Source: Alphaproteobacteria bacterium
Lineage (GTDB): Bacteria; Pseudomonadota; Alphaproteobacteria; UBA828
Assembly (NCBI GenBank): GCA_963667785.2
Contig: CAXXMU010000001.1
Span: 992,001-1,056,000, forward strand
Reading direction: 5' to 3'
Length of the DNA: 64,000 bases
The notes beneath the pieces are model-generated. The model searched no databases. It was not told the DNA's origin and worked only from the letters and a program-made list of their open reading frames with translations. Each line of letters opens with the position of its first letter. The first letter of the stretch is position 1. Below, in pieces: positions 1-12,290 of the stretch. Both the position numbers and the translations under genes were made by a program.

Positions 1-2969
1 CCGGCCTCGATCCAGTCGTCCTCGTCCGTCGGGTCGGCGGAGCCCGCGTAGTACCGCACGTCGTAGTCGGTGAGCGGAGAATCATTAATGTCCGGCGGTA
101 TCCAGTTCACGCTCAGGCTGAGCGCGTCCGTCACCGCAGCCACCGACGGCGCAAGGGGAGCATCGGGCGGGCCCGGCCGGCTAACCCTCACCGGCATGTT
201 GGTGAAGCCGGCTACCGCTTGGCTGTCGATGTCGAGAATGTTGTTCGTCGTCTTGCGCGCGTAGCTCACCGTGACGGTCTGACCGCGCGTGATCGGATCG
301 GTTACGCTCACGGGGATGGTCAGCCGGTTGTCCCTGACGGTCGCTTTGGACAGCGGGGTCTTGTCGACCCCGTCCACGGCCACCGTGAAGTTGGTCTTGT
401 CGAGGCTGTCCGTCACACGGTTGAGACGGTGCAGGTCCTTGGTGAAATAAACGTACACCGCCTCCCCGGTGGAGGTAGTCTGCGCGCTCAGGAACCGGGC
501 CGCGCCGGTGTGCCCCTTGCCCGCCTCCGACCAGTCGCCGGCGCCCTCGCGGTTCGTCGCCCGCACCTGCGCCTCAAATTTGGCGCCCCGCATCAGGCCG
601 ACGATCGTGGCCGTCGTGGCGGTGCCGGTGTGGTCGTGCTCCGTCCACGCCGTGTCGCCCTCGCGCCGGTAGCGCACGTCGTAGTCGCTGACCGCCGGCC
701 ACGCCTCCGGGGCCGCCCAGGTCACGGTCAGCCTGGTGCCGTCCGTCTTCGACACCGTCGGCGCCGCGGGGGCGGCGGGAGGGGTGCCGGGATGGTTGGT
801 GTGGACCGCCATCTTGCGAGTCTTGGTAGCGGTAACCCACGTGTTAGAGCCGGCGGACGCCCGTTCGAGAGTCGTGTCGATGCTCCACCCGGGCGCGGCG
901 CCCGCATCCTCACCGGTCGAGTTCGTGGCCCTCCAGCCGACGTTGTCGTTCGCCCCGGAGGTCACGTCGAGGACCACCGAATACCGCGTACTGGGTTTCA
1001 GGTGGATGCCGGCGCCCGCGGCCGTGAAGCGGTTGGTGCCGGACTTCAGGGAGGCCGGATTCGTCAGCGTGCCGAGCAACTTTGAGCCATAAAATTCTTG
1101 GAGCTCCACTCGGTAGCCCGGCTTCGAGCCGGAGCCGACCTGCAGGTCCAGGTCGACGCCGGTCAGCGTGTAGCCGCCGGCGTGGCTGCCGGTGTTGACT
1201 GCCTGGAGGTGGTCCTTGCTGAAGCCGACATTGCCCCCGTCCGCCTGCCCGATATTGCTCACCACGGCCCCGCCCCCGGCGGAACCGCCGCCCCCCGGCG
1301 CGGCGCGCTTGTTTTTGGCGTGGATGCCGATCTTGAGGGCGCGGCTGGAATTCATCGCGGCCCACGAGGTGCCCCCCGAATCCCTCCAAAAGCCCGAGTT
1401 CGCGATGCTCCACCCCGCCGCCGCTCCGGTGTCCTCGGCGTCGGACGTCGTGACCTTCACCCCGGGCGGGTTGGCCCCGGCGCCGCTCGCGTCGACCACC
1501 ATCCAGTACTTTGTGCCGGGCTTCAGGTCGATGCCCCCGAAGGAGGCTTCGAACAGCTGGACCCCCGCGCTCAGCGCCGACGGCCTTCTCAGTGTGCCCA
1601 GGCTCCTGCCCGGCCTGCCGGACGAGTCCGAATAGATGTGCACCGCGTAGGACAGCCCCGCGTTCGATGCCGAACCGCTGAAGTCGATGTCGAGGCTCGC
1701 GCCGGTCAGCTTGTAGCCCGCGGCATGGTTCCCGGTCGTGAACGCCTGCGCGTGGTCGTCATTGAAATCCCTGCTGGCGCTGCTGTCGGTCGTCTGCGTG
1801 ATGTTGGCCACCACCGCCGCCCCCACCCGCGACGGGGAATCGTCGGCGCGCGCAGTGCCCCGGATGGCGAACTTCACCTTTGGGGATCTGGTCAGAAAAT
1901 TGTTGCTGCCGGAGCTGCGCGACGCGCTGTAGTTGGCAATCGTCCACCCCGCCGCCGCGCCGCCGTCCCGCTGGTTCGAATTGGTCCCCCATACCAGTGT
2001 GGTGCTGTCCGCCGTGCTGACGTCCAGCACCACCCAGTACGTCGTGTTGGCCTTGAGCGTGACAGCGCTGGAGGTCGTGAAGAGGGCGTTATGGTCGCCG
2101 CTTTGCGAGGTCGGGTTGGTCAGCGTTCTCAGGACAGTCCCCGGAAGGCCACCCCAGTTCGCCTCCGCGATGGAGACGGTGTAGACCGGCGTCCCGGTCC
2201 CGCCCCTCAATGCAAGCCACACGCCGGTCAGGTCGTAGCCGGGGGCGTGGCTGCCGGTGGTGAACGCCTGCGCCACGTCGTGGGCCATCGAAACCGTGTC
2301 GTCCGATGACTTGCCGGCGTTGCTCACCAGCGCCCCGCTGGCAAACGTGGGAATGCTGCCGCTGTACCCGGTGTCGTCGTCCTTGATCGTGACATGACAC
2401 CTGTCGTTCTTGCCCCCACGCATCCAATAGTCTCTCATCGTGATGGTGAAGGTCTCATCGCTTTCGTCGAGATCATCCTGTTTGGTGTGAAATCTAACCC
2501 GTCCTTTGTCGCCACCACCCCAAGTGTGCTGCGTGTTCACCACGTTTACGTAGTCGTTGGTGCCAGCGGTCCCCGCAATCGTATCGAACCAGCCGCCATA
2601 ACCATGTGAAGACGCCCTTTCGTGACGAACGACAACGTCGAACGACTCACCTTCGGTTACCACTATGGTGTTGGGCGACTCCCTGTGGTTGGATGACGTC
2701 GCGTCTGGTGGACATTCCAGGTAGTACCTCCCTGCAAAGGCAGGCTCCAACACGCCAACGGTCAACCCGACGAGCAGGCAGGCACCGGCGAGCCAGCGTT
2801 CGGCGCGGAGCCGCGGCGCGGGGGAACGCTTGAGACCCGCGCCCACAGCGCGCCGCAGCCGCGGCAGGAACCCGGCGAAGGAAGGGGAGGAAGCAGGCGC
2901 CGCCGGGCGGCGGAGAGGGGAATTCAGGCGGGAATAGCGCCTCCGCCGGACAGGGTGCGGGCGTCTCAT
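1..2969 (-). CDS. Large secreted multidomain adhesin-like protein, truncated by window start (long signal peptide, Calx-beta-like domain, 3 'VSNxxQ...AQxFTTG...GYxLTG' repeats resembling choice-of-anchor R, FN3, SwmB-like, FN3)
   Basis: Not in the ORF track; translated by hand from ATG 2969 (ATGA overlap with the stop of the upstream ORF). Reads MRRPHPVRRR...WLAGACLLVGLTVGVLEPAFA|GRYY...VTEGESFDV...DETFTITM...VTIKDDD, then LVSNAGKS..VAQAFTTGSHAPGYDLTGV, VANITQTT..HAQAFTTGNHAAGYKLTGA, FN3 (PAAPTVSKTDGTRLTVTWAAP..DYDVRYR..VRATNREGAGDWS) and VYFTKDL..GQTVTVSY. The frame at base 3 (WIEA) matches the frame of the start codon. Confidence 0.88.
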   Translation of the reverse strand, partial: MRRPHPVRRRRYSRLNSPLRRPAAPASSPSFAGFLPRLRRAVGAGLKRSPAPRLRAERWLAGACLLVGLTVGVLEPAFAGRYYLECPPDATSSNHRESPNTIVVTEGESFDVVVRHERASSHGYGGWFDTIAGTAGTNDYVNVVNTQHTWGGGDKGRVRFHTKQDDLDESDETFTITMRDYWMRGGKNDRCHVTIKDDDTGYSGSIPTFASGALVSNAGKSSDDTVSMAHDVAQAFTTGSHAPGYDLTGVWLALRGGTGTPVYTVSIAEANWGGLPGTVLRTLTNPTSQSGDHNALFTTSSAVTLKANTTYWVVLDVSTADSTTLVWGTNSNQRDGGAAAGWTIANYSASRSSGSNNFLTRSPKVKFAIRGTARADDSPSRVGAAVVANITQTTDSSASRDFNDDHAQAFTTGNHAAGYKLTGASLDIDFSGSASNAGLSYAVHIYSDSSGRPGRSLGTLRRPSALSAGVQLFEASFGGIDLKPGTKYWMVVDASGAGANPPGVKVTTSDAEDTGAAAGWSIANSGFWRDSGGTSWAAMNSSRALKIGIHAKNKRAAPGGGGSAGGGAVVSNIGQADGGNVGFSKDHLQAVNTGSHAGGYTLTGVDLDLQVGSGSKPGYRVELQEFYGSKLLGTLTNPASLKSGTNRFTAAGAGIHLKPSTRYSVVLDVTSGANDNVGWRATNSTGEDAGAAPGWSIDTTLERASAGSNTWVTATKTRKMAVHTNHPGTPPAAPAAPTVSKTDGTRLTVTWAAPEAWPAVSDYDVRYRREGDTAWTEHDHTGTATTATIVGLMRGAKFEAQVRATNREGAGDWSEAGKGHTGAARFLSAQTTSTGEAVYVYFTKDLHRLNRVTDSLDKTNFTVAVDGVDKTPLSKATVRDNRLTIPVSVTDPITRGQTVTVSYARKTTNNILDIDSQAVAGFTNMPVRVSRPGPPDAPLAPSVAAVTDALSLSVNWIPPDINDSPLTDYDVRYYAGSADPTDEDDWIEA

Positions 2970-4057
2970 GGCGTCATCCCCGCGCTGCGAATGAGGGTGC
3001 CGGAATTCGCCCCGCTATCCGTGCTGCGTCCGGGCCGATCGCCCTGAGGAGCAAAATGCGTGGCATCCGCGGTCTGAGCGGCCCGGCCTAACTCCGGAAG
3101 GTCGTTGCCATTCAGCGACGTTGACAATCCGGTCGGGTTCGCTGTCTTGTTTCCAGTCGCGTAGCGAAAATGGGATTTGTCGCTCGTGGCTGTAGCTGCG
3201 TTAGCGTGGCCAACGACGAGCATCCTTATGGGGCCGGAGTCGGTGCCGGAGACCTCTGAAAACGGTCCCGTCGTGCCGCTCGTCCGGACCAGTCGGTAGT
3301 TGGCAATGCTCCAGCCGGTGGTGCTCTCGGCGTCCTCGGCGTGGGAGGACGTGCCCGAAAGCTTGCCGCTCGATCCCTGGAGCACCACCCAGTACGTCCT
3401 GTCGGCAGCGAGCCGGGTGTCGGCGGGCGCTATGAAATAGACGTGGCCGCCGCCACTGCCCGGCGCCACCGCTGCGGTCAGGGTCGCAACCTCGGCGGTG
3501 TTGCCCGGCAGCCCCGTCGCCACTTTCGCGGTCATGCCGGTGGCGAGGTTGAAAACTTGCAGCTGAACACCGTCGAGGAGGTAGCCGTTGGGGTTGCTGC
3601 CAGTGATGAACCCCTGCGCAACGTCCGATGCGCCATAGTCAACTGTCAGGCCGGCCCCTTGATCGAAATTGCCCACCAGTAGCTGATGCGCCACCGCCGG
3701 CGCGGCGAGAGCGAGGGCCGCCAGCACGGCCAACGCCGCTGCCCAGGCGCCCAGGCGCCGCCGCTTGCTGCGGAAAGAGGAGAGGGAAGAAGGCCCCGCC
3801 GGACAGCGGAGGCGGAAGGTCAGACGGCGGGAACGGCGCTCCCGACGGGTGCTGCGCGCGCGGCCCATGGTGTCAGCCGCGCGGCCTAGAAGATGTCGAG
3901 GGAAGCCACCCTGCGAGCGGACGCAGGAGCGGCTCGGCTCGGCTCGGCTCGGCTCGGCTCGGCTCGGCTCGGCTCGGCTCGGCTCGGCTCGGCTCGGCTC
4001 GGCTCGGCTCGGCTCGGCTCGGCTCGGCTCGGCTCGGCTCGGCTCAATTATAATCAT
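2966..4057 (-). CDS. Secreted protein with one copy of the same repeat domain; start at 4057 (includes AEPSR repeat) or 3868
   Basis: Signal peptide GAWAAALAVLAALALAAPAVA followed by LLVGNFDQG..VAQGFITGSNPNGYLLDGVQL..TYWVVL..GWSIAN. The DNA at ATG 3868 is homologous to the start region of the downstream adhesin. Confidence 0.75.
   Translation of the reverse strand: MIIIEPSRAEPSRAEPSRAEPSRAEPSRAEPSRAEPSRAEPSRSCVRSQGGFPRHLLGRAADTMGRARSTRRERRSRRLTFRLRCPAGPSSLSSFRSKRRRLGAWAAALAVLAALALAAPAVAHQLLVGNFDQGAGLTVDYGASDVAQGFITGSNPNGYLLDGVQLQVFNLATGMTAKVATGLPGNTAEVATLTAAVAPGSGGGHVYFIAPADTRLAADRTYWVVLQGSSGKLSGTSSHAEDAESTTGWSIANYRLVRTSGTTGPFSEVSGTDSGPIRMLVVGHANAATATSDKSHFRYATGNKTANPTGLSTSLNGNDLPELGRAAQTADATHFAPQGDRPGRSTDSGANSGTLIRSAGMTP
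3931..4045. repeat. Perfect pentanucleotide simple sequence repeat (GGCTC)23 = (GAGCC)23 on the coding strand
   Basis: 23 uninterrupted units counted directly (115 bp). Confidence 0.97.
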
Positions 4058-4091
4058 CCTCGCCACCCCGCGAGCTACACGTTCCCACCCG

Positions 4092-4137
4092 AGCCTAATC
4101 GGACCCAAGGGCCTGCAAAATCCTGCAAAATTGAAGG
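4092..4137 (-). promoter_or_regulatory. Palindromic operator copy 1 (CCTGCAAAATTGAAGG, 4122-4137) plus -10-like TAGGCT (4092-4097)
   Basis: Matches a motif repeated at 5594, 10042 and 13458; 24 bp spacing to the TAnnnT hexamer. Confidence 0.65.
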
Positions 4138-4205
4138 TATCGGCAGCCCGCCGGGACCGCGCAGATCACAGCCGCGGGCTACGCCCCAGCACCGCCCGGC
4201 GGCGG

Positions 4206-5348
4206 TCAGCGCCGCGGCAGGGCGTCCGCCGCCAGCACCTGCCGCACCAGGGCGACCTGCCCCGACACGCCCAGCTTCCGGTAGGTCTGCTGGATCAGCC
4301 AGCGCACGTAGTTCTCGGACCAGCCCCCGACCGCGGCAATCTCGGGCACCTTCATGCCCTCGGCCAGCAACGCCGACACCCGGCTCTCCGACGGCGTCAG
4401 CCCGAGCATCGCCGCCACCCGCTGAGCGTCGATGCGCGGTTTCCGCGCCGGGTCGACCAGCAGCACCAGCGCCGCCACCCGGCGCCCGCCGAAATCACCC
4501 GCACCGTCACCCACCGGGCTCACGTGCAGTCCCAGCCGGGACCGGCCCGAAGGATGTTGGATCGTCATCGAACCGCCGCTCGGGACCTCCCCCCACAAGT
4601 CCGGCAGCGCCCGCCCCAGCAGTCTCTGCAGGCGGCTGCGGTCCGCCGGCAGCCAGGCCTCCAGTGCGCCATCGCGGTCGAGCAGCCCATCGCCGCGGCG
4701 CAGGATGTCCAGCGCCGGCCCGTTCGCCTCCAGCACCCGCCCGGCGCGGTCCAGCTGCACCACGCCGATGCGGTCGTTGGCGAGCAGGCCGGCGAGGCCG
4801 GCGCCCAGCGCTTCGGCCGCCGCCAGCGCCTGGCGCAGGCCGATGAACTGGCGGACATGCGGCAGCAGGCGCTCGACCAGCCGGACTCCGCCAGACTCCC
4901 AGCCGTCGCCGCCCTCGGGGTCGCCCAGCACCCAGACCACGCGCAGCTCGTCCGGCGCGCCGAAATGCACGGTCAGGCCGTTCTGCCCGCCCAGGCGGCG
5001 CCAGCCCTCGTTGTACGCGACCGACGTCTTCAGCTCCTCTTCGGTGTAGAGCTCCCGGGCAGGAGCCAGCCGGCCCTCGCGAAGCGCCATGCGCCGGCGC
5101 GGCGCCTCGTCGTGCGGGAAGTAGAGCTCGAAATATTCCTGCGCCATGTCCGGGCGATCGTCGCCGCGGTAGAGCAGGCGGGCGAAGTCGACGCGCTCGT
5201 AGTCGGCCCCGTCGCCGACCACCATGAAATTGCCGACCGCGCCGCAGGCCTCCTCGATCAGCGCGCTGGCCGCCGGCCAGTGGGCGTCGTCGCGCGCGGC
5301 CCGGTACAGCGCCTCCAGGATGCGCTGGAAGGCATCGTCCGGGTTCAC
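4206..5348 (-). CDS. LuxR-family transcriptional regulator with N-terminal sensor region, PAS-like segment and C-terminal HTH
   Basis: C-terminal LTPSESRVSALLAEGMKVPEIA...YRKLGVSGQVALVRQV is a LuxR/CsgD-type HTH; GVVQLDRAGRVLEANGPA is PAS-like; no receiver domain. Confidence 0.9.
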   Translation of the reverse strand: MNPDDAFQRILEALYRAARDDAHWPAASALIEEACGAVGNFMVVGDGADYERVDFARLLYRGDDRPDMAQEYFELYFPHDEAPRRRMALREGRLAPARELYTEEELKTSVAYNEGWRRLGGQNGLTVHFGAPDELRVVWVLGDPEGGDGWESGGVRLVERLLPHVRQFIGLRQALAAAEALGAGLAGLLANDRIGVVQLDRAGRVLEANGPALDILRRGDGLLDRDGALEAWLPADRSRLQRLLGRALPDLWGEVPSGGSMTIQHPSGRSRLGLHVSPVGDGAGDFGGRRVAALVLLVDPARKPRIDAQRVAAMLGLTPSESRVSALLAEGMKVPEIAAVGGWSENYVRWLIQQTYRKLGVSGQVALVRQVLAADALPRR

Positions 5349-12169: not shown

Positions 12170-12290
12170 GGTGTGCGGCATTTTCAGGCGCCATGGCATC
12201 GCGGAGTCGTTCGGCGGCAGGCGCGCTGGCGGCCGCCCTCTCGCTCGCGGCCTGCGGCGGAGGCAGCGATACCGTGCCCCCCCCCCACAC
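12170..12290 (+). pseudogene. Deleted remnant of the 13668..14579 lipoprotein (leader and lipobox only)
   Basis: gcgctggcggccgccctctcgctcgcggcctgcggcggaggcagcgat matches ~13695-13742; joined at a C10 run (12277-12286) to sequence matching ~14725 onward. Confidence 0.7.

Follow-up and report, generated by a model that had tools for sequence, protein, structure and literature searches.

In Neisseria opa genes, a (CTCTT)n repeat lies in the signal-peptide coding region, in Moraxella catarrhalis uspA2 an (AGAT)n repeat lies in the 5' untranslated region (5'-UTR), and in Neisseria meningitidis nadA a (TAAA)n repeat lies upstream of the promoter. In the latter two cases, the repeat is intergenic and of a non-triplet unit, lies beside an adhesin or autotransporter gene, and adjusts how much product is made. 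The lav autotransporter gene carries a (GCAA)n repeat inside its open reading frame (ORF) (PMC9022572, in excerpt), and a class of promoter or leader 'rheostat' repeats has been described (PMC12721329, in excerpt). For hmw1A and hmw2A of Haemophilus influenzae, excerpts of two papers (PMC12721329; PMC8262952) place an (ATCTTTC)n repeat within the 5'-UTR of an operon for a giant adhesin, and those of PMC12721329 describe a transcribed leader repeat whose length, via a hairpin cut by RNase III, tunes the level of expression and not the reading frame. Here, we analyze a 64,000-nt stretch of DNA (hereafter, the window; G000:C1:992001-1056000) from an alphaproteobacterial assembly (G000; 4,094,588 bp, 70% G+C, 14 contigs), in which a perfect (GAGCC)23 tract stands at the head of a surface-protein gene pair.

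Judged by its layout, the closest analogue of this tract is the hmw1A 5'-UTR heptamer. In both, a very large gene for a secreted adhesin has a non-triplet repeat of variable copy number ahead of its start codon, and paralogous loci differ in copy number. The GAGCC unit is a G+C-rich 5-mer in a 70% G+C host and is spread across phyla, whereas the hmw unit is an A+T-rich 7-mer. The GAGCC tract is located at the predicted transcription start (+1) and is predicted to fold on itself, in contrast to the hmw repeat, which pairs with a long G-rich downstream arm. The GAGCC leader shows only 4–8 nt of conserved complementarity (GGCUU..), and the long duplex with a complementary downstream arm that characterizes the RNase III hairpin of hmw was not found here. 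So far, it is for hmw alone that a dependence on RNase III and an inverse effect of length on expression are described. The features on which the comparison turns are listed below in window coordinates.

Positions 3931 to 4045, minus strand (reading from 4045 to 3931): the (GAGCC)23 tract, a perfect pentanucleotide repeat.
Positions 4047 to 4052, minus strand: TATAAT, a perfect -10-like hexamer that ends 1 nt ahead of the tract and is overlapped by ATG 4057 (ATGATTATAAT).
Positions 3869 to 3930, minus strand: the 62-nt spacer from the tract to ATG 3868, with sequence and length (61–63 nt) kept in orthologs.
Positions 2966 to 3868, minus strand: gene 1, encoding 300 aa from ATG 3868.

The tract is intergenic, lies upstream of the start codon, and has the sense orientation of the gene that follows. 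We consider it reasonably probable that it forms the non-coding, length-variable first part of the 5' leader of the gene 1 mRNA, and probably also of that of the giant gene 2 further downstream, and that its length controls expression. Position and comparative data support a leader repeat, which would probably control expression through its length, rather than serve as a reading-frame switch.

As stated in the original prediction, the tract comprises 23 perfect pentamers (100% pure), and its first G comes 11 nt past the A of ATG 4057, being preceded by ATG ATT ATA ATT. Tandem Repeats Finder reported one periodic run at 3930–4045 (period 5, 23.2 copies, 100% matches, score 232). A count across the whole 4,094,588-bp genome found no second run of at least three GAGCC units, and the tract is also the sole non-homopolymer simple repeat longer than 24 nt in G000. 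Mis-assembly of the tract or of its length is extremely unlikely. A contig of sequencing run X1, possibly the source sample, matches exactly over 4055–4400 and continues into the tract, and a contig of a second sample, X2 (8 differences in 224 nt), retains the junction of tract, TATAAT, and ATG; coming from the upstream flank, contigs of both samples reach the repeat at one and the same junction. The same tract occupies the same place in seven other genomes of the genus and in named public genomes. For an artefact speak the derivation of copy number 23 from one assembly, the inability of short-read contigs to resolve the length, and a related assembly (G014) that breaks inside its own tract. 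Metagenome scans with the two tract junctions returned no match for one and, for the other, one unrelated match with just two GAGCC units.

Tract length changes rapidly between relatives and between paralogs. For example, the G007b and G007c paralogs are identical over 400/400 nt downstream of tracts of n=20 vs n=12, and G007-3 and G008 match at 398/400 nt with n=27 vs n=39, while the G013 tract consists of 5+55 units. The tracts remain pure although their flanks fall to about 60–80% identity. Purity and the length differences among species and paralogs bear out the view that a real, hypermutable simple sequence repeat heads this surface-protein gene pair. At some loci in public genomes (L062, L066, L068, L086, L099, and L117), related pentamers (GAACC, AAGCC, GAGCT, CAAAC) form tracts that border the GAGCC tract, and these compound microsatellites seem to evolve by unit mutation.

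Comparison of orthologs shows which parts of the locus are conserved around the changing repeat. The orthologous tracts are pure, with n=16 in G005, n=10 in G010, and n=9 in L125 (a named Silicimonas metagenome-assembled genome [MAG]), and are followed by spacers of 62, 61, and 63 nt, respectively, and then by ..CTGACGCCATGGGCCG... In 4/4 orthologs, a 61–63-nt spacer leads to the context of ATG 3868, ..CTGAC(A/G)CCATGGGCCG.., and the start context ATGGGCCG is common to G000, G005, G010, and L125. ATG 4057, on the upstream side of the tract, is not conserved. The ATG beside the TATAAT in G005 meets a TAA after three codons, before the tract is reached. G010 is without a counterpart of ATG 4057 and contains an in-frame TAG 18 nt before the conserved start; the tract in that genome is therefore outside the ORF at any n. 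At five further loci (G007-3, G008, L060, L077, and L078), an ATG stands directly after the tract or 1 nt later.

Promoter-like elements suggest that the tract starts at about +1 of transcription. The predicted TATAAT does abut the tract, occupying 4052–4047, one base before the first unit. This hexamer occurs 58 times in G000 on both strands, and the chance of finding it within 10 nt upstream of a given site in that genome is p ~8e-5. A perfect TATAAT precedes the tract by 1, 3, and 1 nt in G000, G005, and G013. In the four G007 loci, G008, G012, G014, and G077, a perfect TTGACA ends 29–32 nt ahead of the tract, which is the distance from -35 to +1 and would thus place the first unit at about +1. 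The best promoter-like scores of the 11 tracts found in the genus were 6–10 on the upstream side vs 4–8 on the opposite side; a score of at least 8 is reached by 1.2% of random genome positions.

The same orientation was found in a wider set of 80 loci fetched from named public genomes, among at least 115 stretches with at least six units. Of the 75 loci with enough flank, 13 have a perfect TTGACA ending 26–36 nt upstream of (GAGCC)n, compared to 0.1 expected and to 2/74 loci when the other strand was tested. With 11 of the 80 loci dropped for short flanks, a promoter-like score of at least 8 was found upstream of GAGCC in 16/69 loci vs upstream of GGCTC in 3/69. According to their record titles, the TTGACA-bearing loci include some from gammaproteobacterial MAGs, Thiobaca, Acidobacteriota, Nitrospirales, Gemmatimonadota, Candidatus Entotheonella, Ruminococcus, and Lachnospiraceae.

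Tracts of at least six GAGCC units are present in 8/21 genomes of the genus, at 1–4 loci per genome and 11 loci altogether. Because the reversed pattern merely rotates GAGCC, and hence provides no control, we used a degenerate search for A followed by four G or C, six times over, (ASSSS)x6. It returned the same eight genomes with per-genome counts within 1 of the GAGCC search; among the 151 of 210 matches listed, all units were AGCCG and no other A+4(G/C) pentamer tract was found. An even sample across the class revealed the tract in 2/201 genomes, G000 and G077, which belong to the same family.

Surface adhesin and restriction-modification genes are the classic classes of contingency loci, and both follow GAGCC tracts. 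Surface-protein genes stand behind 9/11 genus tracts: eight are giant genes for secreted proteins with Calx-beta, FN3, SWM, or PKD domains, and the ninth is gene 1 of the window, followed by giant gene 2. Two of these loci (G008 and G007c) were assigned through their 398/400 and 400/400 nt identity to scanned loci rather than scanned themselves. The remaining two tracts (G012 and G014) are followed by a type IIG restriction-modification target-recognition (TRD)-like ORF, which looks like the C-terminal portion of a type IIG restriction-methylase that recognizes the target and comes just after an Eco57I/DrmMI-like methylase gene. This type of locus was also found in G077 and L103 (an Arenicellales MAG). 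For the wider set, whose loci are not independent, ORF calling was crude and used, for either side, the longest one with a start no more than 400 nt away; FN3, Calx, cadherin, PKD, Big, SWM, Lcl_C, or Slr4 domains were found in 11/68 downstream ORFs vs 0/68 on the opposite side. Other surface repeats are encoded by 3/68 opposite-side ORFs, all of them at gut Firmicutes loci with promoter-like sites on both sides.

Two contexts deserve a record of their own. At L089, L116, L072, L090, L075, and L098 (Ruminococcus, Clostridiales, Lachnospiraceae, and Collinsella; gut Firmicutes and Actinomycetota), promoter-like sites occur on both sides of the tract; in L089, a TTGACA ends 30 nt from each tract end, and the repeat thus stands between two converging sites. 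On the opposite side, the genes of this group encode Beta_helix_3, VWA_2, or Listeria-Bacteroides repeats. The type IIG context is represented by L045 (G012:C13) at 169-5078, by G014 (L003, L049), by G077 (L167 3186-3250, minus strand), and by L103. A TTGACA promoter-like site and (GAGCC)8-33 lie there between a 1244-aa methylase ORF and an ORF of 256–296 aa, the latter matching PADLOC PDLC03620 (E 7.8e-4 and 3.7e-5), and the arrangement may represent a length-variable specificity or restriction module.

Several findings weigh against a non-coding leader that acts through its length. The frame through the tract is open in G000, in-frame ATG, GTG, or TTG codons occur upstream of the tract at 7/10 loci examined, where translation through the present number of units is possible, and X2 retains ATG 4057. 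A sigma-70 consensus scan of 3700–4400 returned no promoter-like site and the -35 region is poor, and promoter spacers elsewhere are awkward (TTGACA-20-TACAAT in G007a-c, TTGACA-15-CACAAT in G012). In thermodynamic folding, the predicted accessibility of the start codon showed no dependence on n between 0 and 40, and the leader folded no better than shuffled sequence (z = -0.89).

The observations on the reading frame would fit a translational on/off switch, with a start at ATG 4057 or TTG 4108, an (EPSRA)n stretch ahead of the signal peptide, and a frameshift whenever one or two units are gained or lost, although we regard such a switch as very unlikely. It would resemble opa and lav in several respects: the opa unit is a pentanucleotide, the genes encode surface proteins or autotransporters, the tract is near the signal-peptide region, and the frame that is open at n=23, as predicted, and that runs from TTG 4108 to the stop at 2966, mimics their layout. 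The out-of-frame loci G007a and G007c could be 'off' states. However, the opa and lav tracts interrupt the ORF downstream of its true start codon, which is not where the GAGCC tract is found. Open frames are common in 70% G+C DNA, the upstream start codons lie at different, unrelated positions from locus to locus, and the retention of ATG 4057 in X2 does not discriminate because that ATG overlaps the TATAAT. Tract lengths modulo 3 in the four orthologs (1, 2, 2, and 0) are uninformative on an on/off state. A frameshift inside an ORF beginning at ATG 4057, as first proposed, was not upheld: this ATG is unconserved, the TAA of G005 halts it before the tract, the TAG of G010 blocks read-through at any n, and the conserved start context is downstream of the tract in 4/4 orthologs. 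The other option named in the original prediction, a tract acting in the 5' leader of a gene that starts at ATG 3868 (in frame with ATG 4057, 189 nt apart), is the one favoured by the ortholog comparison. For annotation, this means that the long frame open across the tract should not be annotated as coding.

The poor -35 region suggests dependence on an activator, and it brings in an explanation at the DNA level. The tract could be a spacer flanked by promoter or operator elements, or an array bound by a regulator (e.g., the neighbouring LuxR-type protein); its length would then alter the geometry or occupancy of the promoter, as in nadA. Two features upstream of the TATAAT are relevant here.

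Positions 4112 to 4131, minus strand: a direct repeat, (ATTTTGCAGG)x2 (period 10, 2.0 copies, 100%), about 60–80 nt upstream of the TATAAT.
Positions 4206 to 5348, minus strand: a gene for a LuxR/GerE-type helix-turn-helix regulator (GerE 21.9 bits, below the Pfam cut-off of 23.5).

The LuxR-type gene likewise precedes the tract in G005 and G010, where its 3' end matches 240–350 nt upstream, and the direct repeat is a possible activator site. The 338-nt gap between the regulator gene and gene 1 contains the 10-nt direct repeat, the TATAAT, the tract, and the 62-nt spacer. Nonetheless, a DNA-level role is unlikely. The consensus scan found no promoter-like hexamers between the tract and ATG 3868, and a downstream promoter would have no room in the many loci where the tract directly adjoins the -10 element on one side and the start codon on the other. 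Moreover, the identical unit occurs in phyla that are unlikely to share one specific regulator. The GAGCC tract also differs from the repeats of uspA2 and nadA in lying right at the predicted transcription start, not between or upstream of promoter elements, in reaching far greater lengths (to about 60 units, in G013), and in the recurrence of its unit across phyla. Separately, the 3' end of the LuxR-type gene (window 4200–4330, the helix-turn-helix part) matched many divergent contigs from all mapped runs and has several matches in related genomes; the gene belongs to a multi-copy regulator family.

A transcribed leader repeat would act through RNA or its synthesis, and its predicted folding has some regular features. 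The GAGCC unit is predicted to self-pair via GC/GC steps with a bulged A, and the predicted 5'-terminal hairpin gains about 2.4 kcal/mol per unit. In a consensus of four sequences, the last two units of the tract pair with a conserved GGCU(U) segment, and the AUG is placed at the loop/stem border of a small conserved predicted hairpin in the spacer; covariation among these four sequences is weak, with 2/28 pairs changed on both sides. No Rfam family matched positions 3500–4400 at E<=1. Given the unchanged accessibility and ordinary stability noted above, simple occlusion of the ribosome binding site is not supported.

We propose the following mechanism for the leader repeat. Transcription would start from a promoter with TATAAT 4052–4047 as its -10 element, the RNA would begin within the first one or two GAGCC units, and translation would start at the conserved ATG 3868, 62 nt past the tract. 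Slipped-strand mispairing, which would be favoured because the unit folds back via G-C pairs with a bulged A, would alter the number of units. Such a change would not shift the frame; it would alter the length of the self-folding leader (about -2.4 kcal/mol for each unit), and with it how much transcript or protein is made, with graded or threshold control at the level of promoter escape or elongation, or of RNA processing or stability. It is only by analogy that we infer an effect of length on expression and the direction of that effect, and a graded or threshold response of transcript yield or stability would likewise follow hmw1A.

The same folding properties would fit a tract that is a mutational by-product: a hairpin-forming GAGCC unit would expand easily in G+C-rich DNA, preferentially at strongly transcribed starts, and would be tolerated in a leader but control nothing. 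To this explanation, we assign a minor though appreciable probability. It is consistent with the predicted self-pairing of the unit, with a start-codon accessibility independent of n, and with the many public genomes, of actinomycetes and of others rich in G+C, that carry tracts of at least six units, often within untidy microsatellite stretches whose flanks lack promoter-like sites. Excerpts of PMC12721329 state that changes in the H. influenzae hmw repeat need transcription and the 5'-UTR hairpin. Against a by-product speak the constant orientation and position of the tracts relative to promoters (the 13/75 loci vs 0.1 expected) and their association with surface-protein genes (11/68 vs 0/68) and restriction-modification genes. 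Pure tracts also persist in orthologs with diverged flanks, and among the matches listed for the 21 genus genomes, other pentamers of A and four G or C formed no tracts.

Downstream of the tract, the second gene of the pair and a partial copy of the leader complete the locus.

Positions 1 to 2969, minus strand: the 5' part of gene 2, which extends beyond the window to G000:C1:986090 and encodes 2959 aa.
Positions 2970 to 3110, minus strand: a tract-less leader paralog directly upstream of gene 2, identified by alignment.

The gene 1 product consists of an arginine-rich N-terminal extension, a signal-peptide-like stretch (..AAPAVA|HQ, assigned by eye), and one choice-of-anchor R domain (NF041539; 72.1 bits in one stretch, cut-off 30). 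Gene 2 matches the same model in three stretches (229.1 bits, cut-off 30) and encodes, in addition to these three choice-of-anchor R domains, FN3, SWM repeats, He_PIG, and Calx-beta. In a language-model look-alike search with its last 369 aa (0.98), 28/30 matches belonged to the PF03797 set, which is a lead and not proof; Pfam detected nothing in the last 480 aa even at E<=5, and a PDB sequence search gave no match. Gene 2 is a probable autotransporter on the basis of this model-derived similarity. In G005, the tract is followed by a giant gene whose collinear counterpart is gene 2 rather than gene 1 (48% identity over 1353 aa).

The 140-nt leader paralog can be aligned to gene 1, G005, and L125 over their spacer and start context, with degenerate sequence replacing the tract; no run of at least three GAGCC units is present in 2970–3110. 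We read this as an apparent tandem partial duplication of the 5' module, in which the long tract would have been kept only by the upstream copy. The stop of gene 1 overlaps the start of the adhesin gene (ATGA at 2969–2966), as had been noted. No terminator-like site was found between gene 1 and gene 2, and the one site in 2600–3700 is within gene 1 and at chance level. It is plausible that a switch would be polar on both genes. The coding signal is weak over about 3250–2970, and so over the last ~85 codons of gene 1 (about 3220–2966), and since the ATGA overlap is in this weakly coding, leader-paralogous stretch, gene 2 may have its own signals.

The giant proteins encoded behind the tracts share a long arginine/proline-rich extension before the signal peptide that has no Pfam match. 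It was seen at window 2969–2730 and 3868–3690 and in L041-L048, L060, L066, L077, L114, L121, and L125. Two subfamilies can be distinguished, ..RERHSRLSF.. and ..W.RR..PPESS..F(E/D)PSPAR..RRGL.., and a similar CCTGAG(T)CTTCC sequence occurs in both, read in different frames. A 'CTGA..TTCC' leader motif was considered as an RNA element and dropped, as it encodes the pre-signal peptides R-L-S-F or P-E-S-S in different frames.

Homopolymer runs were also noted in this genome. A C10 run is found at window 12277–12286 (G000:C1:1004277-1004286), and poly-G/poly-C runs of 9–14 nt are clustered at G000:C1:198000-209500, C6:499000-519000, and C6:1199000-1205778. Three copies of a Mu-like prophage contain the clustered runs, which sit between the prophage genes (GemA, Gp27, Mu transposase C-terminal domain, terminase, and tail tube), some of them exactly at ORF junctions or splitting an ORF. 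They are perhaps prophage-borne variable tracts, or perhaps homopolymer assembly errors. Because the clusters are in Mu-like prophages and not in surface-gene loci, we rejected them as a sign of a wider phase-variation habit.

Arrays of one short unit in distant lineages have a precedent in the TAACTGA intergenic direct repeats of Beggiatoaceae, Cyanobacteria, and Bacteroidetes, which stand in tandem just upstream of start codons; their pattern suggests horizontal spread and a post-transcriptional role, and the excerpts of the source leave the mechanism unexplained (PMC4679880). According to the same excerpts, TAACTGA is an A+T-rich 7-mer in mostly 2–6 copies, at many loci per genome, with no pattern of gene function. 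GAGCC, in contrast, forms long arrays at 1–4 loci per genome with a bias to surface-protein and restriction-modification genes. We found no description of at least three GAGCC units (any rotation, either strand) in the bacterial literature, supplements being outside the search; occurrences in the phase-variation literature are lone ones, apparently in primers, and the main text of PMC12699852 contains neither GAGCC nor GGCTC. A shared cross-phylum module is plausible. We offer more tentatively, as a possibility that falls short of probable, the joint reading that (GAGCC)n beginning at the transcription start is a distinct, sequence-specific contingency module in at least six phyla. Going by the record titles, these would be Pseudomonadota, Bacillota, Acidobacteriota, Nitrospirota, Gemmatimonadota, and Candidatus Entotheonella. 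The module would travel with adhesin 5' ends (promoter, leader, and arginine/proline-rich pre-signal extension) and with restriction-modification genes, and transcription would drive the changes in its length. A conserved mechanism would read that length, e.g., a non-template-strand or RNA hairpin with G-C pairs and a bulged A acting on RNA polymerase or an RNase.

To our knowledge, nearly all known cases of phase variation driven by repeats come from a few host-adapted pathogens whose genomes are A+T-rich. If our reading is true, a G+C-rich pentamer does the same kind of job in a 70% G+C bacterium, and the same unit, with unchanged orientation and position (about +1), stands before genes for giant Ig-like, FN3, Calx, or cadherin surface proteins and before a restriction-modification gene in unrelated phyla. 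Should expression depend on copy number, the locus would provide a second system, independent of hmw, for the setting of expression by a leader repeat and for transcription feedback on repeat instability. Stochastic surface variation would then be far commoner in environmental and symbiotic bacteria than is recognised, and a simple sequence signature would be available to find such loci in metagenomes.

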